Of a stretch of DNA of 64,000 nt, positions 2,088-60,763 are shown piece by piece (the first letter of the stretch is position 1; each line of letters opens with the position of its first letter). This stretch comes from an uncultured Verrucomicrobiae bacterium (lineage in GTDB: Bacteria > Verrucomicrobiota > Verrucomicrobiia > Chthoniobacterales > JAFAMB01). The notes beneath the pieces were generated by a model, which saw only the letters and a list, made by a program, of their open reading frames with translations, did no database searches and was not told the DNA's origin. Made by a program: the position numbers and the translations under genes. Where the stretch lies: assembly GCA_963789065.1 (NCBI GenBank), contig CAWBKA010000025.1:89574-153573 (forward strand), in the 5' to 3' direction.

Positions 2088-2125
2088 GCGTTCGGCGTTC
2101 GGCGTTTGGCGTTCGGCGTTCGGCG
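2088..2125. repeat. heptamer tandem array (GCGTTCG)x5 plus a degenerate unit
   Basis: Five consecutive 7-nt units start 3 nt after the TAG stop of the Rieske gene. The cgatacgtttccc motif follows at 2143-2155. Confidence 0.9.
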
Positions 2126-2735
2126 GGCCGCAGGCGCTTCGACGATACGTTTCCCTGGAAGTCCGAAAGCGGGATGGCGAATCCGAAAACGGAACGATTT
2201 GATGCGTTCGGCCAGGGCGAAAAGGCAACTCCCTCGAGAAAAGGCGCTCCAGGGTCCCATGGCACGGCCGGTGCTAAAGCCTGATAACGAGAGAAATCGA
2301 TTTCCTCAAAGTCAGAACCGGAGTCGCCGGGAAACAATCAATAGAGGAATCGAACTAATCCATGAAACCAGCTTGAGTCGAAGGAGTCGCAAAAAAGTAA
2401 GTTTATGCTTCGCTCGCATATCGGCGAGCCCACAAGCAGGCTTAACAGAGACCACGCACAGCATGAGATCGGTATGGGTATCCTGTGGCTTGTTCTTGGA
2501 ACCGCGTGTGCGGGGCTTGCCTGGAACCTTATCTCAATCTTGCTGAAATCAGCGTAGCCGCGAGGGAAACGTATCGGCGTATCGGCGTGTCCGTTAAGCG
2601 GCCCGTTGGCGGTTCTTGTCCTCCGAGCGGCTTCCAAGGAATACAGCACCGTGGAGGCTGAGTCGAAAATAACCGTCGCCAACGGGCCCCCCCAACACTC
2701 CCGAGACGCCGACACGCGACGCGTTCCCCTCCCGG

Positions 2736-3637
2736 GTCAAACAGTTCGCCCTGTGGCTGCGGGGCCCGCTTCGCTTCTTCTTCGACTTCTGCCAGCAAAC
2801 TCTTGAACTCGTACTTTTTCAGTCCGGCAAGGTAGGCCGGATAATCGGGACGAATCTTGAGGTCCAGTAACCGCACGGGGAGATCATGATCAATTTCGAG
2901 CCGAACCATCCGGCGGTTCTGGTAGATCTTTTCCCGGTTTGCAGCCAATTTTTCTCTCAACTTCAAGTTAGGGATACGGTCGAGGTTTTTAAGCAAACGG
3001 TCGATGGTTCCGAACTCGGCAATCAAGTTTGCGGCGGTCTTTTGTCCGACTCCCTCGATCCCGGTATATTGTCCACGCTATCGCCAGTAAGGGCCAGGAC
3101 TTCGCCGATACACTGCGGCGGAACACCCCATTTGCAGTAACTTCCGAAATTCCAAACAGAGCGTGGGAATCTTTTGGGTTTTTGAGATCGGTCTTATTTG
3201 TGGAATAAATTTTGACTGAATCGTTCACCAGTTGGAAAAGGTCTTTGTCGTTTGTCGCCAGAATCGTCTGAATCTGTTCGGTGCCGCGGCAATCGTATAG
3301 CGGCCATCAAGTCGTCCGCCTCTGTATTCGGTTTAGCAATCGAGGCAAATCCCATAGGAGTACAAAATTCGCGAATAAAATCCAATTGCGGGATCATTTT
3401 TCGGGCATCGCCTCGCGTTGCTGCTTGTATGCGGGCTGCAATTCCACGCGTTTCGCAGGAAGCCCTTCATCCCAAAAGACCGCCGCCAGGTCGGGCTGAA
3501 GATCTTTGAGCATTTTTCGAACGGTGCTGACAAAGCCAAAGATCGCGTTGGTCGGTTCGCCTCGCGAATTTGTCAGTGACTGGATCGCATGATAAGAGCG
3601 ATAGACGTAGTAATGGCCGTCGATCAGGAGGAGTCGT
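2736..3637 (-). pseudogene. 5'-3' exonuclease (Pol I N-terminal/FEN-like domain only), multiply frameshifted
   Basis: Pieces spread over three frames read LLLIDGHYYVYRSYHA.., FGFVSTVRKMLKDLQPDLAAVFWDEG.., MIPQLDFIREF..EADDLMAAI, ILATNDKDLFQLV, KWGVPPQCIGEVLALTGDSVDNIPG and IEGVGQKTAANLIAEFGTIDRLL. There are at least 4 internal frame changes, plus a stop directly after the only upstream ATG. No 3'-5' exonuclease or polymerase domain follows. Confidence 0.75.
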
Positions 3638-4748
3638 CACATAGCACCAGTAAGCAGGGTCTGGACGGCTGTCCAGAGATCAAGGGGATGAAAGAATCGG
3701 AAGAACCGATCACTCTGGACTTAAGGAGTACCTCGCCGCGACACGGCTCAAACAGTTTCAAATTGGGATCGGCGTCCTCACTCAGGTCAGATCGATATCC
3801 CCATAGATAACGTTCAGTGCGCCGCGTAGGCAATCATCGCGGCATTATCGGTGCTGAAAGACGGGGCGGTGAGCTTCAATTCCAAACCGGCGACGGCGGC
3901 TGCATCTGCCATTTTTGAGCGGAGCCGCGAATTGGCACTCACTCCGCCGCTGACGGTGAGCAGATTCATTCCGGCGGAATTGGCCGCCCGAATCGCTTTT
4001 TTCACCAGCACATCAGTGACGGCTTCTTGAAATGAAGCACAAAGGTCTGCTGAAAATCACCGTCCAGTTTTGGCAACAGATAACGGACGGCGGTTTTCAA
4101 TCCACTGAAGCTGAAATTGAAGTCCCGACTGGTCAGCATGCTCCGCGGAAGGTCAAACCGCTTCGGATTTCCGTTTTTTGCGAGGCGATCAATTTCTGGT
4201 CCTCCGGGATAGGGTAAACCGAGAAGCTTAGCTACCTTGTCGAAGGCTTCGCCGGCCGCGTCGTCGAGTGTCCTGCCGAGTAGACGATAAGAGCCGATCT
4301 CGGTCAAATGAATCAGCATGGTGTGTCCACCGCTGACGACCAGGCCCACGGAGGGGACCGGTCCATCAGGTTCCCCGATAAATGGTGACAAAAGATGGCC
4401 TTCCAAGTGGTTTATTCCCAGAAACGGCCTTCCCAGGCCGATCGCGAGACCCTTGGCCGCGCAATAGCCGACCAGTAAAGAAGTCAGAAGTCCCGGACCG
4501 CGCGTTGCCGCGACGCAATCAATTTCAGACAGGCTGCAACCAGCTCGTTTGGCGGCTAACTCAATGAGTGGGCCGATTCTTGGCAAGTGATTACGCGAAG
4601 CCACCTCGGGAACCACCCCGCCATATTTTTTGTGCAGATCGATCTGGCTCGAAATTTCGGAGACCAGCAGGTCTCTCCCGTCTCGAAGAATCGCTACCGC
4701 AGTCTCGTCACACGATGTTTCGACGGCTAATACCAACAACCGACTCAC
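3624..4748 (-). pseudogene. tsaD: tRNA N6-adenosine threonylcarbamoyltransferase TsaD, two frameshifts (probable assembly indels); 3' end uncertain
   Basis: The N-terminus reads MSRLLVLAVETSCDETAVAIL, followed by GINHLEGHL and VSGGHT. The protein continues as ADLCASFQEAVTDVLVKKAI..VSGGVSANSRL..STDNAAMIAYAA in a second frame and RSDLSEDADPNLKL in a third. The first junction is restored by lengthening the 4-nt run at 4053-4056 to 5. Confidence 0.85.
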
Positions 4749-9507: not shown

Positions 9508-9617
9508 GTTTTGCGTTTTGAGTTTTGCGTTTTGGGTTTTGCGTTCCGCGGGGCGCCGAACTCCCCGTGCAGCTTCCCACTCAAAACTCAAAACTCAAAA
9601 CCCAAAACTCAAAACCC
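9508..9617. repeat. inverted pair of heptamer arrays (GTTTTGN)x5 / (NCAAAAC)x5 with a 35-nt spacer
   Basis: The arms at 9508-9545 and 9581-9617 are reverse complements. The spacer holds a small cgggg..ccccg hairpin. The pair lies between the M16 peptidase stop (9623) and the tig start (9491). Confidence 0.9.
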
Positions 9618-13529: not shown

Positions 13530-14108
13530 ATGAGTATGGCTGCAACACCTTCGACGATGGCAGAACTGGGCCGCGAAGCGCCGGAATTCGCGCTTCCCGA
13601 CGTTTCAACCGGGCAAGCGGTAACCTTAGCGGATTTTAAGGGGCGCAGGGCGTTGCTGATAATGTTCATCTGCAAGCACTGTCCGTATGTGCTTCACGCG
13701 AAGCCCGCACTGATTCAGTTGGCGAAAGATTACGCTGACCAACCGCTCGGAATCGTTTCGATAAGTTCAAACGATGCTGAACACTATCCGGATGATGCGC
13801 CGGAGCGAATTGCGGAGATGGCTCGGGAATTCCCTTTTCCGCTCTTGTATGACGAGACTCAAGAAGTGGCAAAAGCTTACCGGGCGGCCTGCACTCCGGA
13901 CTTCTTTCTGTTCGATGCGCACCATCGCCTGGTGTACCGGGGTCAGCTGGACGACAGTCGACCGGGCAACAATCGGCCACTTACAGGCCGAGATTTGCGA
14001 GCGGCGATCGACGCTGTTCTCGCGGACAAGGCGGCCAATCCTGATCAACGAGCCAGCGTTGGTTGCAATATCAAGTGGAAGCCGGGGAATGAACCTGAAT
14101 ACTTCTAG
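13530..14108 (+). CDS. thioredoxin-fold thiol-disulfide oxidoreductase (redoxin family)
   Basis: CxxC motif in FICKHCPYV on a redoxin-type fold. The start codon is uncertain (13512, 13530 or 13536). Confidence 0.75.
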   Translation: MSMAATPSTMAELGREAPEFALPDVSTGQAVTLADFKGRRALLIMFICKHCPYVLHAKPALIQLAKDYADQPLGIVSISSNDAEHYPDDAPERIAEMAREFPFPLLYDETQEVAKAYRAACTPDFFLFDAHHRLVYRGQLDDSRPGNNRPLTGRDLRAAIDAVLADKAANPDQRASVGCNIKWKPGNEPEYF

Positions 14109-14155
14109 GTTTTGAGTTCGGGGTTTTGAGTTTGGGGTTTGGGTTTTGAGTTTGC
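14109..14155. repeat. degenerate heptamer array of the GTTTTGA/GTTTGGG family
   Basis: It starts on the nucleotide after the TAG stop at 14106-14108. It also reads as ~14-nt units (ggttttgagttcgg / ggttttgagtttgg). No inverted partner lies nearby. Confidence 0.8.
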
Positions 14156-35301: not shown

Positions 35302-37020
35302 TTGAACGCAACGAAACTCAAGGGATTTAGGAGACGGTACACTAACGCGCGGTTAAGGACGTTTTTCGGCGCCGTCCTCTCTTCGCGGTCGAGTTACGCT
35401 ATATTAACGCTCTTGTTGTTTGGCGGGGCATTTCTTTTTCGCTTTAAACTTCCGCTCCAGCCTTTGATCGACGGTGATATTGGCGGCTATCTCCAACCGG
35501 CTCTCTTGCAGCTTACAGGTGGCCAGTTTCAACACGTGGAAGGCCGAAGCTTCGTCTACCCAGGCTTTATTTATCTGCTTTTGCGCGTCGGCCAGGACTT
35601 CCGCACGGTAACGATTGTCCAACATCTTCTCGGACTGGCGGCGGGAGCGGTGCTTCTGGCTTGCTGGAACTGCGCAAGAGCGCTGATGAGGAATCCAACG
35701 ATCCCGTCGGGAATCTATCGACTGTCCGGGTTGGCGGTGGCGGCGGCGTTTCTCTTCAATACCAGTGTGGTCCGCTACGAGCATCTGGTTCGCCCGGAAG
35801 CCATCTTCCCCTTCTTTGCCGCTCTGAATATGCTCTTCAACATTCAGTTCGTCAGGCATCGATATTTAGAGGTTAGCGCTCCCACCTTCTTTCTTTACGG
35901 CTGCGCCAATCTCTTCAACGCCTGTTTACTGTTCTTCCTGAAGCCCAGCTTCTTTCTGGGAGTTGGTTTCTCTACTCTCCCGATCTGGGTCTCGCTCTTC
36001 GACCGAAAAGAACCCTTCCTCAGAAAATTCGCTCTACTCACTTTACCTGTTCTCTGTGTTACACTTTTTTTGTTTTTCCCCGAAAAGGCTCTTAAAAACC
36101 ACGACGATTTGAGCAGCGCCTTCCTGCCAACTACCCTGTTCGTCATTCATGCGGATATCATTCTCGATCAGATATCGAGCGATCTTGCAGGTGGCGCGCA
36201 AACGCCCTACCCAAGACAGTTACTGGAGCAAACGGACCTGCTGCTGAAGCAGGAAATTGAGCTCTCGAAAAGTACCGGCCACTATACATCGCTTGGCTTC
36301 GATCCGGACTACCTGATGTATCGCGACTCTTTCGCTCAAAAGTTCCCAGCACTTCTTGCAACGGAAGACCCGATGAAAAATAGAATCGAATTCTATTATG
36401 ACTATTTTTTCAGGGCTTGGGCCCACCGTCCAGACCGAATGCTAACAAAGGTCTTCAAGCAACTGTTGATCTTATACAACAATATCGGAAAGGCCTCTCC
36501 GTATAAGCACGAGGTGGAGCTGGTGGTCGGCCGGAACTATCAAAACAATTGTTATGTTTTTGACTCGAAAGAAAGCTTATCCAAAATACCCTACGCGCCA
36601 TTAACCGACCTCGTTTTGAAGTCAAGGGAGATGGCAAACGCGGAACCGAGGCTGGCGCAACCAGCCGTTCTTTCCTGGTTAAATGGCTTCCTGGCACGCA
36701 CATTTTCAATTTCCATCCTCCTGATGTCCATTGTTTTAGTGATCGTTCTGAAGAGCCCCGCGCTGAGGTCTCGCTACGGCTGCTTCGCGCTAACGGTGAT
36801 GCTTTTCTATACCTATAGCTTTGCCAACAGTCTGGGCATTGCGATCATTCATTCGTTGGAGATCACCCGCTACTTAACCAACCAATTGATCTATTGCCTG
36901 CTGCCACAAAAGTATGGCGATGTTCCTGGCTGCCGAGCTCCTCAGCCGAAAAACCGCCCAGGGGCGAAACGACAAGCTTATCGCGGGTTAGAAAGGTGGG
37001 AGTCAGGAGTCAGGAGTTAG
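35302..37020 (+). CDS. large polytopic membrane protein, function unknown (possibly a GT-C type glycosyltransferase)
   Basis: 572-aa ORF with many hydrophobic segments. I recognise no motif. The TTG start is uncertain. The last 7 codons are encoded by a heptamer array. Confidence 0.55.
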   Translation: MNATKLKGFRRRYTNARLRTFFGAVLSSRSSYAILTLLLFGGAFLFRFKLPLQPLIDGDIGGYLQPALLQLTGGQFQHVEGRSFVYPGFIYLLLRVGQDFRTVTIVQHLLGLAAGAVLLACWNCARALMRNPTIPSGIYRLSGLAVAAAFLFNTSVVRYEHLVRPEAIFPFFAALNMLFNIQFVRHRYLEVSAPTFFLYGCANLFNACLLFFLKPSFFLGVGFSTLPIWVSLFDRKEPFLRKFALLTLPVLCVTLFLFFPEKALKNHDDLSSAFLPTTLFVIHADIILDQISSDLAGGAQTPYPRQLLEQTDLLLKQEIELSKSTGHYTSLGFDPDYLMYRDSFAQKFPALLATEDPMKNRIEFYYDYFFRAWAHRPDRMLTKVFKQLLILYNNIGKASPYKHEVELVVGRNYQNNCYVFDSKESLSKIPYAPLTDLVLKSREMANAEPRLAQPAVLSWLNGFLARTFSISILLMSIVLVIVLKSPALRSRYGCFALTVMLFYTYSFANSLGIAIIHSLEITRYLTNQLIYCLLPQKYGDVPGCRAPQPKNRPGAKRQAYRGLERWESGVRS

Positions 37021-37047
37021 GAGTCGGGAATCGAGGTCGGGATTTGG
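36999..37047. repeat. heptamer tandem array (GGAGTCA)x7, decaying distally
   Basis: The units read ggagtca ggagtca ggagtta ggagtcg ggaatcg aggtcgg gatttgg. The TAG stop of the preceding gene (37018-37020) lies across units 3 and 4. Confidence 0.9.
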
Positions 37048-47290: not shown

Positions 47291-47302
47291 CTGCGCCCTG
47301 CG

Positions 47303-48819
47303 TTCAGGACATAGGTAACACAATAGGTTCAAGACATAGGTAACACTTCAAAGGCAGGAACCGGAGTAAAAAGGCTCGGTAAATGCCGTGGAAAAAAAGT
47401 GAACCTATGGATCAAAGAAGAGAGTTTGCGCTGAAGGCGCTGGGAACGTTGAATTTTCGAGAGTTGTGCCGGGAATATGGAATCAGCACCAAGACGGGTT
47501 ACAAATGGCGAGAGAGGTTTTTACGCCAAGGGCTGGAGGGGATGGAGGAAGATTCGCGGCGACCACGGAGCAGTCCCAAGCAATTGAGTGAAGGGCAAGT
47601 GTGCGAAATGGTGAAACTGAAGCTGGGGCATCGCTATTGGGGTCCGCGGAAGATCCGGACGTTGTACCATCGGCGACACGGGCAGGCGCCCAGCGAGAGC
47701 AGTTTCAAGCGGGTGCTGGAGCAAGTGGGTTTGACCCAGCCGCGCCGAGTGCGAGAGGGGCCGCTGGCCGGAGGGCGGCTGAGCAGTGGACGCCGAGGAC
47801 AACAACCCAATGAGGTGTGGACAGTGGACTTCAAGGGCTGGTGGCACTTTGGAGAGAGTAGGCGGTGTGAACCCTTGACAGTCCGCGATGAGTTCAGCCG
47901 TTACGTGCTGGAGTTGCGAGCGATGGACAATGCGCGCAGCCAGACGGTGCGAGAGGCCTTTGAGCGGATCTTTGAGCGACACGGTTTACCTGAAGCGATC
48001 CGCTGGATAACGGGGCGCCTTTTGCCAGCGTGCAGGCCTTGCACGGGTTGAGCCGGCTGTCGGCGTGGTGGGTGGCCTTGGGAATCGATTTGGAACGAGG
48101 TCGGCCGGCGCATCCGCAAGATAACGGAGGGCACGAACGGCTGCATCGGGACATCGCCGAAGAGTTGGAAAGCTTGGGTCAAGGAGCCACGCCAGAGGCG
48201 CTGGAGCTGTGGCGAGAGGAGTTTAACCGGGAGCGCCCCCACGAAGCGCTGGGGATGCGTTGTCCGGCGGAACTCTACCAGAACTCGAGCAGGCCTTACC
48301 GCGCGACAGAAGTGCAATTGAGCTATCCCGGGATGGCGGCCCGCTTGGTGGACAAAAACGGCAAGCTGAGTTGGAAGAACCAAAAGGTCTTCCTGACCGG
48401 GAGCCTGGCGGGTTGGGAGGTAGGGCTCCAAAGGGCTGAAAAGGGCCAACTGGAGATCTGGTTTGGCCGGTTGCTGCTTGGACACCTTGATCCGCAGGAG
48501 GTCAGTTTCCTAAGGGCCGAGGTGGCGTTATGAACGGACTCCAACCATCGTGGGGGCCAAGGGAGGATCCCCCTGGCGACGGGTGGCCGCAACTCGCGAC
48601 TTACCCACAATCGCCTTTATCCGGGCGGGTGTGCTGCTGCGACGTGGCGTACCTGTCCCAGGCATTCTCGCAGCTCACCGGCCCGGGGCGATTATGGATA
48701 AGTCTAGCCGCCATTTGTTGGCGATATTCCAGTTCGCAGAATGGACAGAATCAAAACATGAACTAAAACAGTGACAGTGTTACCGATGTCCTGACCCAAA
48801 AGTGTTACCGATGTCCTGA
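47303..48819 (+). mobile_element. IS481-family insertion sequence with tandemly duplicated terminal repeats
   Basis: The 18-nt motif TCAGGACATAGGTAACAC occurs twice at the left end (47304-47321, 47329-47346). Its reverse complement occurs twice at the right end (48777-48794, 48802-48819). A possible 5-bp duplication CTGCG lies at 47298-47302 and 48820-48824. Confidence 0.85.
47383..48533 (+). pseudogene. IS481-family DDE transposase, one frameshift near 48004
   Basis: N-terminal HTH (FRELCREYGISTKTGYKWRERF) and an integrase core (NEVWTVDFKG.., ..DNGAPFAS.., HPQDNGGHERLH). The reading frame changes between AIR and DNGAPF. Confidence 0.85.
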
Positions 48820-48826
48820 CTGCGCC

Positions 48827-48920
48827 GCCGAACGCCGAACGCCGAACGCCGAACGCCGAACGCCGAACGCCAAACGCGCGCCCGGCGAACGGTGAACGGT
48901 GAACGGTGAACGCCGAACGC
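48827..48920. repeat. heptamer tandem array, 13 units (GCCGAAC x5, degenerate, CGGTGAA x3, CGCCGAA x2)
   Basis: A continuous 7-nt register holds over 94 nt. The unit is the reverse complement of the GTTCGGC family at 2088 and 56099. The IS481 right end lies 7 nt upstream. Confidence 0.9.
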
Positions 48921-49025
48921 CGAACGATTCTGGTTGCGGCTACGCCGAGCCGTGATAAATGCCAGTTTGGCCGCTCAAACCAACTGGTCAAAATTGACGA
49001 TGTTAATAATTCACACTAGGGTCGT

Positions 49026-50822: not shown

Positions 50823-51701
50823 CTAAAGACGCTCCGCCAGGCCATGCTCCGGGTCTTTGGCAATCCGCGAGTCCGGGCGTTCGGTGAGAATTGGTCCGGC
50901 TTTTTCACTCTCGATTGTCGCCATCTTCTGGACAACCTCGTGCCGCCGTTTGCTCGAAAAAAACGGATGAAGGATACCATAAAATAGATAGCTGATGAAA
51001 AGGACGGCTGGCATCCAGGTGTAGTTGGCCACCGTGGCAATCACGACCAGCACAATCACCAGGAGCTTCAAGGTGGGATGCCGGGTGCGCAAATCCAAGG
51101 CCCTAATGCTTGGGTAACTAAAGTGGCTAAGCATCATGAATGAGAGAAACAGCGTCAAAGGCGGCAGCAGCCATTTCCAACCGACAACTTGGTGCCCGCC
51201 AGGTGTGAGTGACAACGAAAACCAGGTCAGCGAAGCGATGATACCAGCGGCCCCTGGCACGGGTAAGCCATCAAAAGTCTTTCCCTTTTCAGTCCGCACC
51301 ATCGCGGCGGCAGTGCAGTTGAAGCGGGCAAGCCGTAAGGCGCAGCAGAGAAGGTAAACCGCGGCCAAAACCAAGCCGGCATACGAGAAATCCTTCAGCA
51401 GAATGCGACAGGCTAGCAGCGCCGGCGCGACTCCGAAAGAAACCAGGTCTGCCAGCGAATCGAACTCGCGCCCAAAGGCGCTCTCCTGGCCGCCCATCCG
51501 AGCGAGGTGGCCATCGAGGAAATCGAAGACGAATGCCGCGGTAATAAAGCCGATGGCCCAGGCAAAGAAAGATCTCTCTGAAAGGCTACCCTGCAAACGA
51601 GTGCCATGGAGGATACTCAATGTGGCCGCAAAGCCGCAGAGTAGATTGCCGCTGGTCATCAGGGTGGGCAAAAAATAAATTCTTGGTGATTTGTTTCCCA
51701 T
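50823..51701 (-). CDS. pssA: CDP-diacylglycerol--serine O-phosphatidyltransferase
   Basis: CDP-alcohol phosphatidyltransferase motif DFLDGHLARMGGQESAFGREFDSLADLVSFGVAPA. Polytopic membrane protein adjacent to psd. Confidence 0.88.
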   Translation of the reverse strand: MGNKSPRIYFLPTLMTSGNLLCGFAATLSILHGTRLQGSLSERSFFAWAIGFITAAFVFDFLDGHLARMGGQESAFGREFDSLADLVSFGVAPALLACRILLKDFSYAGLVLAAVYLLCCALRLARFNCTAAAMVRTEKGKTFDGLPVPGAAGIIASLTWFSLSLTPGGHQVVGWKWLLPPLTLFLSFMMLSHFSYPSIRALDLRTRHPTLKLLVIVLVVIATVANYTWMPAVLFISYLFYGILHPFFSSKRRHEVVQKMATIESEKAGPILTERPDSRIAKDPEHGLAERL

Positions 51702-51737
51702 GTCGAAGGTTAAAGCAGTCCGAAAGGCGGCAAAGTC

Positions 51738-52412
51738 CTAGAGGAACGATTGAGAGAGCCCTTGAGAATGCATCTTGTCTTTCGAAGAGAGTTTCGCAAT
51801 TACGCTTTCCCCGCCTTTCACGCGCTCGCCGATCTTTACCCTGATCTCGCTATCCATCGGCATATAAATCTCCGTTCGTGAACCAAATCGGATCATCCCA
51901 AAGCGTTCTCCTTTTTTTAGCTTATCGCCGACTTCCGACCAGCCAACGATGCACCGCGCCACCGCCCCAGCAACTTGCCGCACCACCAGGGTGGCGCGTG
52001 CGCTCTCGAACGCCCAGGTCTGATACGCATTTCGACGGCTCGCATCGGGATGCCGTGCATCGAGAAAGCTGCCACGATGGCTCCTTACGTAAGTGATTTT
52101 GCCGTCGATTGGAGCGCGATTGGTATGCACGTCGAACACCGAAAGAAAGATCGCTACCCGCCTCGCAATAGCGTTGAGGACTTCTGGTTCGAACGTTTCA
52201 TCGATGCCGACAATTTTTCCGTCAGCTGCCGCGACAATGGCGTCCCCATCGGCCGGCGTTGTGCGATTCGGGTCGCGGAAAAAATAAACCGTGCCAAGGA
52301 TCAGCGGCACCCAAAACAAGTTCAGCCAATGGCTGACTCTGCTGCTGATTGCAGAAAAGATCAACAGCACCAGCAGAATCCATCGTGCCTCCAGCAAAGT
52401 TTGAAATCGCAC
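51738..52412 (-). CDS. psd: phosphatidylserine decarboxylase proenzyme (short form)
   Basis: FFRDPNR, VHTNRAPIDG and the GERFGMIRFGSRTE region, which contains a GS(R)T self-cleavage-type site. 224 aa. Confidence 0.85.
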   Translation of the reverse strand: MRFQTLLEARWILLVLLIFSAISSRVSHWLNLFWVPLILGTVYFFRDPNRTTPADGDAIVAAADGKIVGIDETFEPEVLNAIARRVAIFLSVFDVHTNRAPIDGKITYVRSHRGSFLDARHPDASRRNAYQTWAFESARATLVVRQVAGAVARCIVGWSEVGDKLKKGERFGMIRFGSRTEIYMPMDSEIRVKIGERVKGGESVIAKLSSKDKMHSQGLSQSFL

Positions 52413-52543
52413 AAATGCATAGCAATAAGAAATCGCTACGAAGCCGTCAAGAGGCGTATGAGCACGCGTGACTTTCCACCGCGGTGTGCTGATTCACTCC
52501 CAGCCCGCCGTCCGCGCCCGATCGAGAGTGGTCCTGATCCCTC

Positions 52544-52570
52544 TCTCACCTCTCACCTCTCACCTCTCAC
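52544..52570. repeat. heptamer tandem array (TCTCACC)x4
   Basis: Same unit as the 19-copy array at 56141-56273. It overlaps the last codons and the TGA stop of the LysR gene, which reads GGTGAGA in gene sense. Confidence 0.85.
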
Positions 52571-53550: not shown

Positions 53551-55116
53551 ATGAAAACATTAACGGTGCCAGCGGAAACCTCTTCAGCTTCGGGGTTGCC
53601 AACGCTTTGGCCGAAACGATTTGCACCGGCATTCGAGAGGTCTTCAAGGACGCGACGGGTAAATGTCCGCCTCCAGGAAAAGGAACCGGCCAACAAATGG
53701 ATCTCGCTGGCGGTTATCCTGGTCGGCCCGTTTCTAGGCGTGATCGATTTTTTCATCGCCAACATCGGAATTCCCTCCATCCGGACCTCTTTAGGCGCCT
53801 CCTTCAGCGAGATCGAACTCGTGATCGCCGGCTATGGATTATCTTACGCTGTCTGCTTGATCACCGGCGGAAGACTCGGGGACATCTTCGGCCGGAAAAT
53901 CACGTTTATCCTTGGGATGGCTGGTTTTACTTTGACCTCGGCTCTTTGCGGTTTGGCACCCACGGCGGGGTGGCTGATTTTCTGGAGGGTGGTCCAGGGA
54001 TGCGCCGCCGCGGTCATGTTTCCGCAAGCGCTTTCTTACATCCAGGTCAATTTTTCGGGACCATCGAAACGTGTCGCTTTCAGTCTCTATGGCGCAATGA
54101 TCGGTTTTGGATCGATCGTTGGACAGTTGCTCGGCGGCTTCATTATTCAGGCTAACTTTTTCGGCCTGGGCTGGAGACCGATCTTCCTGATCAATCTACC
54201 GATCGGGATCATCACGATCGTCAGCGCTTCCATGGTTCTCCGTGAATCGCGCGCGAACACCGCGCCGAAGTTGGACTTGGGCGGCGTCGCCATCCTCACT
54301 GTTGGTCTTGCTCTGTTCGCCTACCCGTTTATGGAAGGTCAACAGCAGGGATGGCCCTTATGGGCCTGGGCATCGCTCCTCGCCTCAGTTCCTGTCCTCT
54401 GGGCGTTCTATCTTTTCGAGCGCATGAAATCAGCGAGAAATTGCTCTCCCCTCATCGAGCCTCGGCTTTTTCGTGATCGCGGCTTCGTGGTCGGCCTGAT
54501 GGTGACCTGCATCTACTTTGGAGGCCACACCTCCATGATCCTGGTTTTGAGCCTTTATCTTCAATACAGCCTTGGTCTGAATCCGATGTACGCCGGGTTC
54601 GCCCTGGTGCCATTCTCTTTCGCATTCCTGCTCGGCTCGGCTGTTTCCGGCAAGATCAACGGCCGCCTCGGGCGCGGCTCACTCCATCTCGGTGTCGTTA
54701 TTCTGGCGATTGGCATCGTTGCCCTGGCGTTGGAGGCGGGCAAAGTTCCGAGTCACTTGACGCTGAGCTTCGTACTAACTTGCTTCCTCTACGGGATCGG
54801 TCGCGGAATCGTTACTTCACCTCTCTACAATACGGTGCTGAGCGGCATTCCGCACGAGGATGCCGGCGCGGCGTCCGGAGTAACTTCTACGATGCCTCAA
54901 CTGGCCAACTCCGTCGGTATCGCACTCATCGGTGCAGTGGTGTTCAGCGCAATCCCGAAACACGGCGCCACACCTGCCGACTACGCCCACGGTTTCGTCA
55001 TTTCATCGTTGATTAACCTCTTGATGCTTTTCGTAGCGGCTGTGCTGATATTTTTTATTCCCAAAAGCCGTGGTCGCGATCTACCAGCTGGCGAACCGGT
55101 CGCTGCCGAAGGGTAG
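53551..55116 (+). CDS. MFS transporter (DHA2/EmrB-like, ~14 TM)
   Basis: Many TM segments with the MFS motif GGRLGDIFGRK. An alternative upstream ATG lies at 53488. Confidence 0.85.
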   Translation: MKTLTVPAETSSASGLPTLWPKRFAPAFERSSRTRRVNVRLQEKEPANKWISLAVILVGPFLGVIDFFIANIGIPSIRTSLGASFSEIELVIAGYGLSYAVCLITGGRLGDIFGRKITFILGMAGFTLTSALCGLAPTAGWLIFWRVVQGCAAAVMFPQALSYIQVNFSGPSKRVAFSLYGAMIGFGSIVGQLLGGFIIQANFFGLGWRPIFLINLPIGIITIVSASMVLRESRANTAPKLDLGGVAILTVGLALFAYPFMEGQQQGWPLWAWASLLASVPVLWAFYLFERMKSARNCSPLIEPRLFRDRGFVVGLMVTCIYFGGHTSMILVLSLYLQYSLGLNPMYAGFALVPFSFAFLLGSAVSGKINGRLGRGSLHLGVVILAIGIVALALEAGKVPSHLTLSFVLTCFLYGIGRGIVTSPLYNTVLSGIPHEDAGAASGVTSTMPQLANSVGIALIGAVVFSAIPKHGATPADYAHGFVISSLINLLMLFVAAVLIFFIPKSRGRDLPAGEPVAAEG

Positions 55117-55194
55117 GGATGCGAGGGTCCGGCGTGGCATGTCTCGAAGCTTCCGTTCTCGAACGGGATGGTAGGGATGCGAGTCCGGCGTGGC
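55112..55194. repeat. direct repeat of a ~26-nt motif (ggtagggatgcgag(g)gtccggcgtggc)
   Basis: Copies lie at 55112-55138 and 55170-55194. The first copy contains the TAG stop of the MFS gene (55114-55116). Confidence 0.75.
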
Positions 55195-55293
55195 GCGTCC
55201 AGAAAACGTGGTCAGCCCCTTCGGATTTTGCAAGCACGCCGAAAATCCCGTTGCGCGCTTTGGTTCGCGACATTTTCGCGCTAGATATTTGGA

Positions 55294-56097
55294 ATGATTC
55301 ATCAGACCGCCGTTGTTGATCCGAAGGCTCAGATCGATTCCAACGTTGTCATCGGTCCGTATGCTCTCATTGAAGGTCCGGTTCAAATCGCTTCCGGCAC
55401 GGAAATTCAGGGTCACGCAGTCATAACCGGCTCGGTTCAGATCGGAGAGAACAATCGGATCGGATACGGGGCGGTGATCGGCGCGTTTCCTCAGGATCTT
55501 AGTTTTGATCCGAACTCCAGGTCCGGCGTAAAGATCGGCGAGAACAATGTCATCCGGGAGTATTGCACCGTCCATCGGGGCACCAAAGAAGGGTCAGATA
55601 CTCTGATCGGATCGAACAACCTTCTCATGGTGGGTGCACATCTTGGGCACAATACGCGAATAGGGAACAACGTAATCCTGGCCAATAATGTTTTGCTGGC
55701 TGGATATGCGGAAATTCATGATCGTGTCTTTATCGGCGGCGGCAGCGTCGTCCATCAGTTCACGAGGATGGGCACCATCTCGCTTCTGCAGGGTATTTCC
55801 GGCGTTGGCAAAGATGTCCCGCCATTTTCAATCGCCATCGGCAAAGACGGTATTTCCACCGTCAATGTCATTGGACTGCGGCGGGCAGGATACAGTGCGG
55901 CATTGCGTAAGGAAGTGAAGGAAGCGTTCGAGCTCTTGTACCGAAGTGGATTGAATTCAAGCCAGAGTCTCGAGGAAGCCAAAAAGCGTTCCTGGTCGAA
56001 CGAGGTTTCCTTGTTTTGGGACTTTGTCGCGACCTCGAAACGCGGGATCTGCCCCGTCGTTCGATGGAAAGAAACTCGAGGCATGGAAGAAACGTAA
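55294..56097 (+). CDS. lpxA: acyl-ACP--UDP-N-acetylglucosamine O-acyltransferase
   Basis: Starts [14 protein letters not shown], followed by hexapeptide-repeat left-handed beta-helix and the LpxA C-terminal helical domain. 267 aa. Confidence 0.93.
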
Positions 56098-56098
56098 C

Positions 56099-56126
56099 GG
56101 CGTTCGGCGTTCGGCGTTCGGCGGGC
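56099..56126. repeat. heptamer tandem array (GGCGTTC)x3 plus a degenerate unit
   Basis: It starts 1 nt after the lpxA TAA stop. Same unit family as 2088-2125. Confidence 0.9.
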
Positions 56127-56140
56127 GGCTGAGTGGTCCC

Positions 56141-56273
56141 TCTCACCTCTCACCTCTCACCTCTCACCTCTCACCTCTCACCTCTCACCTCTCACCTCTC
56201 ACCTCTCACCTCTCACCTCTCACCTCTCACCTCTCACCTCTCACCTCTCACCTCTCACCTCTCACCTCTCACC
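56141..56273. repeat. perfect heptamer tandem array (TCTCACC)x19
   Basis: 133 nt with no mismatch. It generates the spurious SHLSPLT-repeat ORFs in the ORF track. Confidence 0.97.
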
Positions 56274-56293
56274 ACCTCCGCGATCTCAAACAA

Positions 56294-56360
56294 GACGCCG
56301 CTTCGCGAAGACGCCGATACGCCGATACGTTTCTCCCGCACGCCGATACGTTTCTCTCCC
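56294..56360. repeat. CGCCGATA octamer / cgatacgtttctc motif repeats
   Basis: The region reads acgccgat acgccgat acgtttctccc gc acgccgat acgtttctctccc. The same motif occurs at 2143-2155 and, in inverted orientation, at 2564-2586 and near position 60-75. Confidence 0.8.
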
Positions 56361-56415
56361 GTCCTGCTCATTTTTGTTTGATCATCTATGGTTGGTTGTT
56401 TAATACGACACCTTA

Positions 56416-56934
56416 ATGACGAGAGCCTTACGTGCCCTGACCATCGGGCTGACACTCCTTGCTATAGGTTGTTCGGAAAATGGAGGGAGAGGTAAGTCGA
56501 GTGAACGCGGCAGCAAGGTCCCAGTTGGCGAGCGAAAAATTGTCAAAACTACGGCCTATACCGATTCAGAATCCGGGCATCACGCCTACGGCGCTAAAAA
56601 TGCGATCGGATCTTGTCTCCAATCGGGCAGCCTGAACAGCGCGGCGGCAGACTGGTCTCGTTTCCCGATCGGCACCAAATTCCGGGTCGTCGATACCAAC
56701 CAGACGTATGTGATCGACGACTACGGTCCGGCTCTGGTTGGCACCGACACCATTGATTTGTACGTGCCATCGATGCGGCTTATGAATCAATGGGGCGCGA
56801 AACGGGTAACGATTGAGGTATTAGAAATGGGGTCGTTTGAAAGAAGTTTAGCAGTCCTGGAGCCGCGCCAGAGAAACCGATGTGTCAGGCAGATGGTGCA
56901 GAATATCAGAAAGCAAGATGAAACGAGGTTTTAG
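56416..56934 (+). CDS. 3D (DPBB, MltA/RlpA-like) domain lipoprotein
   Basis: Lipobox LLAIGCS, then TAYTDSESG and a 3D-domain-like core ending TIDLYVPS. Confidence 0.72.
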   Translation: MTRALRALTIGLTLLAIGCSENGGRGKSSERGSKVPVGERKIVKTTAYTDSESGHHAYGAKNAIGSCLQSGSLNSAAADWSRFPIGTKFRVVDTNQTYVIDDYGPALVGTDTIDLYVPSMRLMNQWGAKRVTIEVLEMGSFERSLAVLEPRQRNRCVRQMVQNIRKQDETRF

Positions 56935-56937
56935 CGC

Positions 56938-57910
56938 TTGAAAGTTTTTGTGACAGGCGGAGCGGGTTACGTCGGAAGCATCTGCGTCGAAGAACTGCTT
57001 CGGCGCGGGGACGAAGTTTTCGTTTTCGACAATTTGTCCGAAGGTCACCGTCTTTCGATCGATCACCGGGCGACATTTATCCAAGGCGATTTACTTGATC
57101 CTAAATCGATTTCGCTCGCGATCAACACATCCGGCCCGGAAGCCGTAATGCATTTCGCGGCTAATGCACTCGTGGCCGAATCGATGGTGAATCCGTACAA
57201 ATATTTCCAAAACAACGTGTACGGCGGCCTGAATCTTCTCCATGCGATGATTGAAAACGGCGTCGAACCGCATCGTGTTTTCTTCTACCTGCGCGACTTT
57301 CGGGACCCCCGACCGCAGCCTGATCGACGAAAACACGCCTCAGAACCCGATCAACCCGTACGGGGAGTCCAAACTGATGTTTGAGAAGATTCTCCGCTGG
57401 TTTGACCAGATTCACGGTCTTACCTTTATTGCCTTCCGGTACTTCAATGTTGCAGGCGCCTCGGAGAAATTCGGCGAACACCATCGGATCGAAACACACT
57501 TGATTCCGCGTGTTCTGCAAGTCGCGTTGGATCGAATGCCGAACGCCGAGATTTACGGGACGGATTTTCCGACTCCGGACGGGACTTGTATCCGGGATTA
57601 CATCCATGTACTTGATCTTGCGTCAGCACACATCCTTGCCCTTTCAGCTCAGAAGAGCGACTTTTTTAATCTCGGAACCGGTGGCGGAACTTCCGTGAGA
57701 GAGGTCATCGATGCCTGCCGCAAGGTCACCGGGCATCCGATTCCGGCGATCGAAAAACCTCGCCGCCAAGGCGATCCGCCCCGCTTAGTGGCTTCTTCGG
57801 AAAAAGCAAAAGAGCAACTCGGGTGGAAGCCGCAGTTCGAGAATATCGAAGCGATCGTCGGGAGCGCTTGGCGGTGGCATATCGCCCATCCGGACGGTTA
57901 TCCAGATTAG
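56938..57910 (+). pseudogene. galE: UDP-glucose 4-epimerase GalE, one frameshift near 57265 (probable assembly indel)
   Basis: VTGGAGYVGS Rossmann start in frame 1. The protein continues in frame 2 as RIVFSSTCATFG..NPYGESKLMFE (YxxxK)..RYFNVAGA..DYIHVLDL. TTG start. Confidence 0.9.
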
Positions 57911-57953
57911 TGTCCTGTCCCCGAAATAGGAGGTCTTTTGCGGAGGTCGGTTA

Positions 57954-58026
57954 GCTGTCCCGCACCAGTTACAGCCGCCGCGGCAAAGCGGACGACCCAT
58001 CATAGTAAAACTGGTGCGCGGACAGC
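57954..58026. repeat. long-loop hairpin (17-18 bp stem) downstream of galE
   Basis: gctgtcccgcaccagtt (57954-57970) pairs with aactggtgcgcggacagc (58009-58026) with one bulge. The half-motif gctgtcccgcacca recurs at 62750-62763. Confidence 0.5.
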
Positions 58027-58249
58027 CAACCCGGCCCGGCCCAAAGGGTTGCGATGAAAATGGCCCGGCGGCTGCGTTTGCTGATCGGTCAACTTCCTCG
58101 GTTTTTTCCGTTCCTAGTCTGTAATCCCTTCCGTCAAAGTGCGGCGCCGGATGCGTGGGAGTCTATGCCGCCCTCCGGGGGTTTTTCCTTGCTTTTCAGA
58201 GTCCCCGATGTTGCCCTTTTGTTTTATTTTATTCCGTTAACAATCCCTC

Positions 58250-60672
58250 ATGAGGCTCCGGATTCTAGGTCTTTTCTTTCTGATTTCGCTGCCGATCAAA
58301 TCTGCTTGCCCAAGTCGCATCCTTACCCGCCGCCTCCGAGCCGCACGCCGGCCGACGCCTACGCCTGGGCCTCGCCCTAGACGCCCGGCCGCAAAGAATT
58401 CGGCGTTTAGCCCCGTTGCTGCCCTTTCAGAGCGCGACAGAGTACCGGACCGATCCCGGTTGAAATCACGTCCGGAGAAACTCGATTTGAGGGTGGAGTC
58501 GCCATTGCGGAAAAGGATGTCGTCGTCCGATACGGCGATGCCACGATTTACTCCGACTATGCAGAATACAACCCCAACACCCACGAAATCGTGTTGCGAG
58601 GCAATGTCCGATTCTATCGGGACAGATACGCCTTCACCGCCGACCGAGCCATTTACAATCTGCAAACCAAGCAATTGAAGATGACTGATTTTGGGGGTCC
58701 GAAACCGCCCTTTCAGGTCGTCGGCGATACCCTCCTTTCCCTCAAGGAAAATCAATACACGATTTTGAACGGTTATCATCACGACGAGCGACACGTCGAA
58801 ACCCGATTACCAACTCCGTGCTCGGACGTATTCGCATTTATGAGAACGATCGAATCATTCTCTCGAACGTAACGCTGTTTATCGGACAAACGCCGGTTTT
58901 CTGGTTTCCTTATATTTACCAGTCCTTAAATGATCAATTCAGCTATAACCTGGCTCCAGGGTACAACTCGACGTGGGGAGCGTATTTGTTCACGTCGCTG
59001 ACTTTTCCGATCGCGACGAACGTGAGCGGAACGGTTGCACATCGACTTGCGAAGCTTCCCGCGGGCCGGCTCTTGGTTTCGAGATCAACTACACTTCCGC
59101 CAAGATAAGCAGACCTCCGGGCGCCTGCTGGTTTACGGGTTGATCGATCAGTCGCCAAATATCAATGAGACCGCATTGGGCCGTGCCCCTATCGGTTCCG
59201 GACCGATATCGCATCGCGTACCAATCCAGGACCTATATCACCAGCGATCTATCGGCGACCGTTAATTTCAATAAATTGAGCGACCAATATTTTCTTCAGG
59301 ATTTTTACCCCAGTCTCTTCGCCGTACGATCCTCAGCCGGATACCTATACGAATTGGTAAAACGCGGCGAGGCCTACACCCTGAGTTTACTGACCCGTCC
59401 TCCAAGTGAACGAATTTTCTGGAAACGGCCGAACGCTTGCCCGAATTAAGTTGGCAGGTCGCGCGAACGCCGCTGTTTAATGGACCGATCTTCTACGAGG
59501 CAACCACATCCGCGGCCTACCTAAACCGCTTATTCGCCGCCAAAACGGGCAATCTATCCATCGACCTGCAAAGCGGGGCGCTCAATCCCGACTACGACCT
59601 TTTTCGCTTTGATTCGTTTCATCAACTTGTTTTTCCCCACACTTACTTCGGTTGGCTATCACTTGTTCCGAGCCTCGGCGTCCGCGGTACCTATTACAGA
59701 CCACCGGAAGTTTCACGGAATCTGATATCAGTAATCCAATCCCCGAGGGTATCCTGGTCGAACACGGGGGACGCGCAAGGTTTGCCTTTAACTCCAACAT
59801 TGAGGCCTCCTTCAAGCTCTCAAAGGCATTCGAGAACGTGCAACAGAGATGGCTCGGACTCGACGGTCTGCGTCACATCATCCAACCTTACGCCGACTTC
59901 TCATGGGTCTCTTCCCCAACGGTTAAACCCTCCGATATCCTCCCCATTGACCAGTATATCCCGAGTACCAAATTGCAACCGATCGATTTCCCCGAGTACC
60001 GTGCGATCGATTCGCTCGATCAGTGGACAATATTGCGCCTCGGGATGCGGAACCGACTCCAGACTCGGCGTGATTCCACGACTCTCAATTGGCTCGATAT
60101 CGACAGCTATTTTGACGTCGATTTCGATAATCCTCTTGCCCAGGTCGCTCCGCCAGCCAGTACCAGCGTTTCGCGTTCCAACATTGTCACCCCGCCGCAC
60201 GAACTTTTCTCCAATGTCTTCAACAGGATAAGATTTCAACCCGTTCCTTGGCTTTACCTCTCTGTTGACTCGCAAGTGCCTCTTCTGGACAAAGGGTTCT
60301 GGTCGGTGACGACCTTTGTAGACTGGATGGTAAGTCCCAATATTGAATTCCGAGTGGGACATCAGTATTTGCAGAGCAATCCGTACTACCAGGATACGAG
60401 CGAGCTCTCCTTTTACACTTACCTGCGGCTAAACGACAATTGGGGCTTTAGTTTTTATGAGGATTACCAATTCAAGACGGGAATCGTAAACCTGCAACAA
60501 TATTCAATTCATCGCGACCTGAGCAGTTGGGTTGGTTCGCTTGGATTTAATATCACCAACAACGGAGCCGGTAAAACGCAGATCGCGCGTGGTGTTGACG
60601 TTCACCCTGAAGGATCTGCCCAGATTCGGTTTGCCAATCAATTTGGATGTCGGCAACGCCCTCGGCGAATAG
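58250..60672 (+). pseudogene. lptD: LPS-assembly outer-membrane protein LptD (OstA family), at least 7 frame changes
   Basis: Signal peptide MRLRILGLFFLISLPIKSA. OstA-like N-domain (ITSGETRFEGGVAIAEKDVVVRYGDATIYSDYAEYNPNTHEIVLRGNVRF). Collinear barrel fragments follow in alternating frames (IRIYENDRIILSNVTLFIGQTPVFWFPY.., LPELSWQVARTPLFNGPIFYE.., WLGLDGLRHIIQPYADFSW.., VVLTFTLKDLPRFGLPI). The 5' end is uncertain. Confidence 0.8.
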
Positions 60673-60673
60673 A

Positions 60674-60763
60674 GTTTTGAGGTTTGCGTTTTGCGTTTTG
60701 GGTTTTGAGCGATTCTTTTGCGCCGTGTCGCAACCCGAAACCCAAAACGCAAAACCCAAAACC
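60674..60763. repeat. inverted pair of heptamer arrays (GTTTTGN)x5 / (CNAAACN)x4 with a 27-nt spacer
   Basis: Arms at 60674-60708 and 60736-60763. It starts 1 nt after the reconstructed lptD TAG stop. Same family and architecture as 9508-9617. Confidence 0.88.

Follow-up and report, generated by a model that had tools for sequence, protein, structure and literature searches.

A perfect TCTCACC array between lpxA and a 3D-domain lipoprotein gene as a probable member of a lineage-specific family of heptanucleotide repeats at gene ends in Chthoniobacterales

The window analysed here is a 64,000-nucleotide (nt) stretch of DNA from an uncultured Verrucomicrobiae bacterium of the Chthoniobacterales (assembly GCA_963789065.1, contig CAWBKA010000025.1, positions 89,574 to 153,573). 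Its subject is a compound repeat block with a long perfect TCTCACC array, which lies at about 56098–56360 of the window between lpxA and a gene for a putative 3D-domain lipoprotein. The two genes belong to an envelope cluster in which the order lpxA–3D–galE–lptD is conserved. The array is not solitary but one of many slippage-prone heptamer arrays that follow gene ends in this soil lineage.

Results

Organization of the repeat block

Tandem arrays were called with Tandem Repeats Finder (TRF) and by direct reading, and the two approaches are concordant. The locus comprises the following features:

55294–56097, plus strand: lpxA, UDP-GlcNAc acyltransferase (Pfam Hexapep and Acetyltransf_11; from the list of open reading frames, ORFs)
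56085–56118, plus strand: G-rich 5′ arm of the predicted hairpin, made of the last four codons and the stop codon of lpxA (GGAAGAAACGTAA) and most of the (GGCGTTC)x3.7 array (TRF, inverted repeats I1–I6, minimum free energy (MFE) fold)
56098–56123, plus strand: (CGGCGTT)x3.7 array, equivalent to (GGCGTTC)x3.7 (TRF, 100% matches)
56120–56137, plus strand: G-rich linker GCGGGCGGCTGAGTGGTC, whose predicted pairing partners are the first two or three TCTCACC units
56139–56273, plus strand: perfect (TCTCACC)x19.3 array (TRF, 100% matches, no indels, score 270)
56274–56309, plus strand: unique 36-nt spacer ACCTCCGCGATCTCAAACAAGACGCCGCTTCGCGAAG with small local hairpins (sequence, fold)
56310–56359, plus strand: C-rich 3′ arm of the predicted hairpin, (ACGCCGAT)x2.4 and two copies of CGCCGATACGTTTCTC(C/T)CC (TRF, motif search, fold)
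56371–56415, plus strand: conserved block of 45 nt upstream of the 3D-domain gene (seven-species alignment)
56416–56934, plus strand: 3D-domain putative lipoprotein gene, 172 aa (Pfam PF06725, >1000 homologues)

The repeat block begins at the first base past the lpxA stop codon with the (GGCGTTC)x3.7 array, continues through the linker, which contains a (GGCGGGC) run of 1.4 copies, and then enters the TCTCACC array. The latter holds no G and 58% C, and the G-free run of 143 nt at this position exceeds every other such run in the window threefold. A two-unit TCTCACC pattern is matched 21 times, against 0.5 expected from shuffles, and hence the array and its companion repeats are not due to chance. 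Within the 3′ arm, the (ACGCCGAT)x2.4 run occupies 56311–56329, exact copies of CGCCGATACGTTTC lie at 56320–56333 and 56341–56354, and the octamer CGCCGATA consists of the complement of GGCGTTC and one extra base. The block ends near 56360, 55 nt before the ATG of the 3D-domain gene at 56416. A preliminary description of this DNA had reported the same three components, an array without mismatch, and an end about 55 nt ahead of the lipoprotein gene, and all of this holds. As the window is seemingly a long-read assembly with local frameshift errors, the count of 19 could be off by a unit.

The repeats also reach into lpxA. Its final five codons (MEET*, 56083–56097) have no counterpart in relatives, in which the C-terminus reads ...ETGVEE*. 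The terminal 15 nt are non-homologous to any relative and resemble an inverted copy of the CGCCGATACGTTTCTCC motif; read as such a copy, they indicate that the repeat system has remodelled the end of lpxA, with repeat turnover rewriting the C-terminus and providing the stop codon.

A coding role for the array was set aside, as ORFs 56024–56416 and 56133–56381 are by-products of a stop-free repeat and no protein evidence was met, no search aimed at it having been made. Formation of a G-quadruplex or i-motif by the TCTCACC unit was rejected, the unit having no G or C tract of three or more. Rfam covariance models give no match at E<=1 in 55800–56700 and none at the gathering score in the whole window.

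Predicted fold of the transcript

The region 56085–56415 is predicted to fold with −79.6 kcal/mol (z = −5.8). In the MFE fold, 33 base pairs link 56085–56118 to 56310–56359 and enclose the array, which sits in the hairpin loop with 121 of its 135 bases unpaired; in the predicted RNA, the pairing of the G-rich linker takes up the first two or three TCTCACC units. The MFE is unchanged from 8 to 30 units and flat beyond about 4 copies, so that unit number would alter loop size only. This imperfect palindrome at a gene 3′ end, with its 33-bp long-range stem and copies dispersed elsewhere, resembles the repetitive extragenic palindromes and bacterial interspersed mosaic elements (REP/BIME) of enterobacteria.

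A family of period-7 arrays in the window

Perfect tandem arrays of at least 2.5 copies number 11 in the window, a 64-kb sample of the genome, and every one has a period of 7; periods 4–6 and 8–12 yield none. Control loci from other phyla contain 4 perfect period-7 arrays in 777 kb. At least five unrelated 7-nt units coexist. GGCGTTC or its complement CGCCGAA forms arrays at 2088, 46098, 48826 and 56098, GTTTTGN at 9508, 14108 and 60674, GGTGAGA/TCTCACC at 52543 and 56139, and GGAGTCA at 36999, while GGCTGGT and AAGGCAA types are seen in relatives. Members of the family other than the lpxA block are:

2088–2160, plus strand: paralogous element (GGCGTTC)x5.4, GGCGGGC, CGACGATACGTTTCCC, 3 nt past the stop of a Rieske-protein gene, with a hairpin fold
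9508–9615, no strand assigned: inverted pair (GTTTTGN)x5 / (ACTCAAA)x5 between two M16 peptidase genes (hairpin z −5.1)
14108–14154, plus strand: (GTTTTGA)-type array beginning at the stop codon of a peroxiredoxin gene
36999–37029, plus strand: (GGAGTCA)x4.4 array overlapping the stop of ORF 35302–37020
48826–48926, plus strand: (CGCCGAA)x14 array, complement of GGCGTTC, adjoining the right end of an insertion sequence (IS) element, 99 nt upstream of a polyprenyl synthetase gene
52543–52570, minus strand: second TCTCACC array, (GGTGAGA)x4 on the LysR sense strand, overlapping the LysR stop (TRF)
60674–60763, plus strand: inverted pair (GTTTTGN)x5 / (AACCCAA)x4.6 overlapping the stop of ORF 59652–60680 (hairpin z −4.6)

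Most arrays, in the window and in the related loci L004, L005, L055, L056 and L057, overlap a stop codon or start 0–10 nt from one. The genes that carry them are unrelated, encoding a Rieske protein, a peroxiredoxin, an M16 peptidase, LysR, LpxA and two proteins of unknown family. At LysR, where four copies of TCTCACC had been described and are found, the repeat encodes the C-terminal ...VRGER*, and this array has the flank GAGTGGTCC..CTCTC in common with the main one. Motifs of the CGCCGATACGTTTC type recur at 60, 2140, 2566, 56089, 56320 and 56341.

Inverted pairs of arrays occur at 9508/9579 and 60674/60732 in the window, at 3718/3834 in L004, at 2085/2202 and 4768/5046 in L005 and at 182/309 in L055. 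Their hairpins have z-scores of −4.6 to −5.8 in the window and relatives, and in every pair observed the arm with G precedes the arm with C in the 5′ to 3′ direction. A repeat of another kind starts at the stop of a major facilitator superfamily (MFS) transporter gene, where the direct repeat GGTAGGGATGCGAG(G)GTCCGGCGTGGC occurs twice (55113–55138 and 55170–55195); it is not a heptamer array.

Copy number among near-identical strains

Same-species short-read assemblies provide three contigs for comparison, L001 and L002 from one sample and L003 from another. L001 matches the window at 99.95% identity across the 3.84 kb left of the block and stops two bases into the array. L002 begins inside the array with 15 units, L003 has 8 nt of left flank followed by 12 units, and both are identical to the window over 56274–56957. 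Comparison of copy number across strains, a check proposed in the preliminary description, thus gives 12 units in L003 and at least 15 in L002 against 19 in the window, beside identical right flanks. Since the lengths differ next to flanks of 99.95–100% identity, the sequences mark the TCTCACC array as probably hypermutable. The earlier suggestion of recent expansion is supported, for the array is perfect, absent from four related species and of different length in near-identical strains, as a young and unstable repeat would be. Short-read assemblies break at the array, and a metagenome scan with 24 nt of the right flank returned 0 matches and no further alleles.

The differences between the window and L001 also cluster at repeats, with three of the four over 3.84 kb lying in or at them. 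L001 has (GGCGGGC)x3.4 where the window has x1.4, a two-unit difference, together with a 1-nt indel in the linker, where GAGTGG of the window is GATGG in L001 and L003. One of the two substitutions in L001 falls at the edge of the LysR array, whose copy number is the same as in the window.

Farther downstream, the galE–lptD region (57000–59700) is 5–10% divergent from L002 and L003 with many indels, and galE and lptD are each split into several reading frames in the window. Errors of the long-read consensus in an envelope region that varies between strains would account for this, or else galE and lptD are real pseudogenes.

The orthologous site in relatives

The best genome matches of LpxA are soil metagenome-assembled genomes of Chthoniobacterales/Verrucomicrobiae, at 90, 87, 84 and 74% identity. 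Perfect period-7 arrays number 4 at the L004 locus and 1 at the L005 locus, both from sister species; these two closest relatives and L055 carry complementary period-7 pairs at gene ends, and the more distant L006, L007, L056 and L057 have few or no such arrays. Past the lpxA stop, L004 has (GTGAGAG)x5, about 80 nt and (CTCTCAC)x3, a complementary pair of the same unit (z = −5.8). L005 has a hairpin built from another unit, within which the contig ends. In L006, L054, L056 and L057 the site is a 73–100-nt spacer with no array. The spacer of L054 holds a single CGCCGACACGTTTCTTCC motif at the position of the 3′ arm, apparently the ancestral sequence that seeded the 3′ arm of the window.

Position likewise outlasts sequence at the LysR stop, where three species have three different heptamer units. 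In the window a pssA–psd pair lies between a RadC-like gene and LysR (50823–52412); it is missing there in L005, L006 and L057, in which the RadC-like gene and LysR are convergent neighbours with a heptamer hairpin between them. In L055, lpxA is inverted relative to the 3D-domain gene, and inverted copies of a 33-nt repeat (CGTAAGCGAAGGCTCCAGCCTTTGC...) lie between the lpxA start and the 3D-domain gene (2969–3960). Three tandem copies of this repeat stand upstream of lpxA in L004 (2725–2823), and it is absent from the window.

Metagenome occurrence and insertion sequences

Arrays of (TCTCACC)5 occur in at least 120 metagenome contigs with GC contents of 30–73%. This breadth makes the unit a commonplace microsatellite shared by many organisms, and it was excluded as a lineage marker. 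The GAGTGGTCC flank of the two window arrays was found in 0 of the 126 metagenome TCTCACC arrays examined. One metagenome contig, L079 (GC 54%), has GGAAACGTATCGGCG, (GGCGTTC)3 and (TCTCACC)6 beside an unrelated gene at 1555–1760, and this recurrence of the trio suggests that the motifs spread as a mosaic module.

The terminal inverted repeats of an IS element at 47302–48821 are doubled (GTCAGGACATMGGTAACAC), its rve-type transposase is split over two ORFs, and 4 nt separate its right end from the (CGCCGAA)x14 array. The same IS end adjoins (CACACCC)2(TCTCACC)12 in the unrelated metagenome contig L161. This IS family may insert next to heptamer arrays, much as certain insertion sequences target REP elements. 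The only transposase met was of the rve type, in a partial scan of the window ORFs with no search aimed at REP-type (Y1) transposases.

A conserved promoter-like block ahead of the 3D-domain gene

The 45 nt before the 3D-domain gene comprise a T-run (TTTTTGTTTG), a −35-like TTGATC (56378–56383), a 17-nt spacer and a −10-like TAATAC (56401–56406), followed by the ATG at 56416. TTTTTGTTTGATCAT is invariant in seven species save single-base changes at two positions; in the same alignment a TA.ATAC element lies 17 nt past TTGATC, and TAATGAC spans the start codon. A generic sigma-70 consensus scan of 55900–56600 called no promoter, the conserved block included. Judged by its conservation, the block is likely to be the core promoter of the 3D-domain gene, and its T-run possibly also serves as the tail of an lpxA terminator.

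The conserved block lies wholly downstream of the repeats and is also kept in species without any array. Changes in the number of 7-nt units would therefore leave the −35/−10 spacing and a short leader unchanged. The preliminary description had proposed that unit number shifts promoter or leader spacing of the lipoprotein gene in a phase-variation-like way. This proposal is not supported. A promoter-like block that is conserved in seven species stands between the repeats and the ATG, and the arrays occur at the 3′ ends of unrelated housekeeping genes, unlike the pattern of contingency loci. The TCTCACC array is probably not a switch for the 3D-domain gene.

Discussion

A slippage-prone microsatellite at a gene 3′ end

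The reading that we favour, and hold to be fairly probable, is that the TCTCACC array is a hypermutable heptanucleotide microsatellite within a genome-wide, lineage-specific family of 7-nt repeats, that it is part of a hairpin at the lpxA 3′ end, and that it is not a switch. Arrays of this family would occupy the short non-coding stretch just past stop codons, where a G-rich array followed by its C-rich complement would let the transcript end fold as a long imperfect, REP/BIME-like hairpin. At the present locus the 3′ end of lpxA and (GGCGTTC)n would pair with the CGCCGATACGTTTC motifs, and the TCTCACC array would be an unpartnered C-rich arm that has expanded within the loop. Replication slippage in 7-nt steps would best account for both the perfection of the array and its length differences among strains, and a slippage rate that climbs with array length would keep it homogeneous. 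Any effect would then fall on the lpxA transcript end, where the G-free, C-rich tract, with its likeness to a Rho loading site, would be a candidate insulator between lpxA and the 3D-domain gene.

Several points weigh against this interpretation. The strict abutment of stop codons and the constant G-rich-first order suggest selection or a directed mechanism and not pure neutral drift, and the motif trio at an unrelated gene in L079 hints at dispersal of a module, which slippage in place does not explain. Slippage within the population is judged from three or four assemblies, and the 12-copy allele comes from one contig end with 8 nt of left flank. The promoter assignment draws on conservation, the generic sigma-70 scan being silent.

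The heptamer arrays might form a distinct class of microsatellite-built 3′-end hairpins, each with a G-rich array from the stop codon onward and its C-rich complement behind it. Sister species would then differ in the unit but agree in position, 7-nt period and polarity, and the elements would disperse as mosaics and serve as IS targets. We regard this reading as unlikely. If it were true, a directed mechanism would generate or spread the arrays, or selection would act on period and structure and not on sequence, and the 19-copy array would be the actively expanding arm of one element.

A selected RNA element

Alternatively, the array could be a selected RNA element at the lpxA transcript end, either a Rho-dependent terminator or insulator or a 3′ stabiliser, which has replaced the hairpin and U-run of relatives and whose length is maintained by selection. 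Rho loading sites are long, C-rich, G-poor and unpaired stretches of RNA. The 143 nt without G, at 58% C and with 121 of 135 array bases unpaired in the predicted fold, match a Rho-utilization (rut)-like site of at least 70–80 nt that is C-rich, G-poor and unstructured, and make the tract a candidate for Rho loading. Paired arrays elsewhere occupy exactly the positions of terminators or REP elements. A promoter and terminator scan of 55900–56600 found no intrinsic terminator in the block; its long stem closes at 56359 and the T-run starts only at 56371, beyond the distance of about 2 nt within which the U-run of an intrinsic terminator follows its stem. In L054 and L056 a small hairpin stands directly before the conserved U-run; replacement of the lpxA end cost the window the 5′ arm of this hairpin. 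An intrinsic terminator in the ancestor is a weak idea, however, because such terminator-like hairpins in the array-free relatives fold no better than shuffles (z −0.5 to +0.3, non-significant).

Further evidence speaks against a selected RNA element. The sense strand of other family members is rich in G and T, which precludes a Rho site there. The two M16 peptidase genes, probably transcribed together, have an inverted pair between them, and its hairpin is 17 nt from the next start codon. Strain lengths vary, and related species manage without an array. We consider a selected element of this kind rather unlikely.

Control of the 3D-domain gene through a long leader

Graded or phase-variation-like control of the 3D-domain gene would require the array to lie in a long 5′ leader, transcribed from an upstream promoter or by read-through from lpxA, in which unit number tunes expression. 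Copy number does vary among near-identical strains, the 3D-domain gene product is an envelope protein, and lpxA and the 3D-domain gene are co-directional with no canonical terminator called between them. Pyrimidines dominate the array, whose first units pair in the predicted fold with the adjacent G-rich segment, in the manner of the hmw leaders of Haemophilus influenzae (PMC12721329). The promoter-like block nevertheless intervenes between repeats and ATG, and it is conserved in all seven species compared, including the four that lack an array. Similar arrays come after numerous housekeeping genes and between genes of one operon as well, and the orientation of this one obeys the general 3′-end rule, with nothing specific to the gene. 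The 3D-domain gene itself, conserved and single-copy, belongs to a cluster for envelope biogenesis and is not a typical contingency gene. Leader-based control is on balance improbable, more so than a selected RNA element, although lpxA read-through transcripts may convey a graded effect to the 3D-domain gene.

An assembly or polishing artefact, in which a long-read assembler inflated or homogenised a shorter or impure repeat, would be in keeping with the frameshifts and indels of galE and lptD against same-species short-read contigs, marks of an imperfect local consensus, but it is very improbable, as independent short-read contigs from other samples hold mismatch-free arrays, one of 12 units and one of at least 15, beside identical right flanks, and a third contig ends at the left edge of the array.

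Implications

For the claim of lipoprotein phase variation the outcome is mostly deflationary, with a switch unlikely. The wider interest lies in the heptamer period, heptamer repeats being known for their over-representation in bacterial genomes. The Chthoniobacterales lineage is a cleaner case than Xanthomonas or Nostoc, for several unrelated units coexist, and neither a G-quadruplex nor a single sequence-specific binding protein can therefore explain the pattern. What the Chthoniobacterales arrays have in common is period, hairpin architecture and position at the stop codon. In practical terms, heptamer arrays fragment short-read assemblies of abundant soil Verrucomicrobia at gene ends, and they could be used as strain markers.

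Comparison with known systems

The closest functional analogue of the switch idea is the (ATCTTTC)n repeat of H. influenzae hmw1A/hmw2A, which lies in a mapped 5′ leader and pairs with a G-rich leader region; the hmw1A hairpin is cut by RNase III, and a longer repeat lowers expression (PMC12721329). The likeness extends to pyrimidine-rich heptamers in 10–30 units, a position upstream of an envelope or surface gene, a predicted G-rich partner and a strain-variable unit number. In contrast to hmw1A, the window array is separated from the gene by the conserved promoter-like block and belongs to a genome-wide 3′-end family. TAACTGA heptamers of Beggiatoaceae, Cyanobacteria and Bacteroidetes form arrays of up to 43 copies a few nt upstream of start codons, for which a translational role is proposed (PMC4679880). 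These too are abundant intergenic direct repeats of heptamers, but one conserved unit lies near start codons there, whereas diverse units lie at gene 3′ ends in Chthoniobacterales.

Placement past stop codons and hairpin formation instead recall REP/BIME elements, as do the GGCGTTC and CGCCGATACGTTTC motifs at three or more loci in the 64 kb and in L079. In enterobacteria, REP/BIME elements are short imperfect palindromes, mosaics of a few motif types, which stand after the stop codons of co-directional or convergent neighbours and are transcribed into hairpins. The adjacency of an IS end to an array in two independent cases further recalls insertion sequences that target REP elements. The arms of the Chthoniobacterales elements differ in being tandem microsatellites whose unit changes between species.

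The nearest match is with intergenic heptamer arrays of Xanthomonas and Nostoc. Rehm et al. (2015) reported about 185 arrays of GGGAATC in each Xanthomonas genome and comparable ones (GGGGAYT) in Nostoc/Anabaena, with 2–26 units, about 90% of them intergenic, at mean distances of 28 nt to the upstream ORF and 160 nt to the following one (PMC4692102). Inverted pairs were counted 70–75 times, sister species have arrays of different lengths, genes of every functional class adjoin them, and no function was found (PMC4692102). Earlier work (Mrazek et al. 2007, as cited there) is credited with showing that heptamer repeats are generally over-represented in bacteria, polymerase slippage being the proposed cause (PMC4692102). 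Both sets of arrays have 7-nt tandem units, many copies in the genome, an intergenic bias, closeness to the upstream ORF end, inverted pairs, a wide length range (2–26 units there, 2–19 in the Chthoniobacterales arrays), neighbouring genes of every functional class, and lengths and presence that vary from one sister species to another. In each set the G-rich strand coincides with the coding strand where the array follows a gene and with the non-coding strand where it precedes one. The Chthoniobacterales arrays differ in that they have no single consensus, with at least five unrelated units, and in that most units (GTTTTGN, GGTGAGA, GGCGTTC) cannot form G-quadruplexes. GGTGAGA/TCTCACC, which has no run of three or more G, falls outside the GGGAATC/GGGGAYT G-quadruplex subfamily and within the broader heptamer kind. 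As the units are mostly without G-quadruplex potential, the shared properties are the 7-nt period and the hairpin. No report of heptamer repeats in Verrucomicrobia or Chthoniobacter was found in the literature searched, in which one query joined both topics. The Chthoniobacterales arrays are thus a new, lineage-specific example of the known intergenic heptamer repeats.

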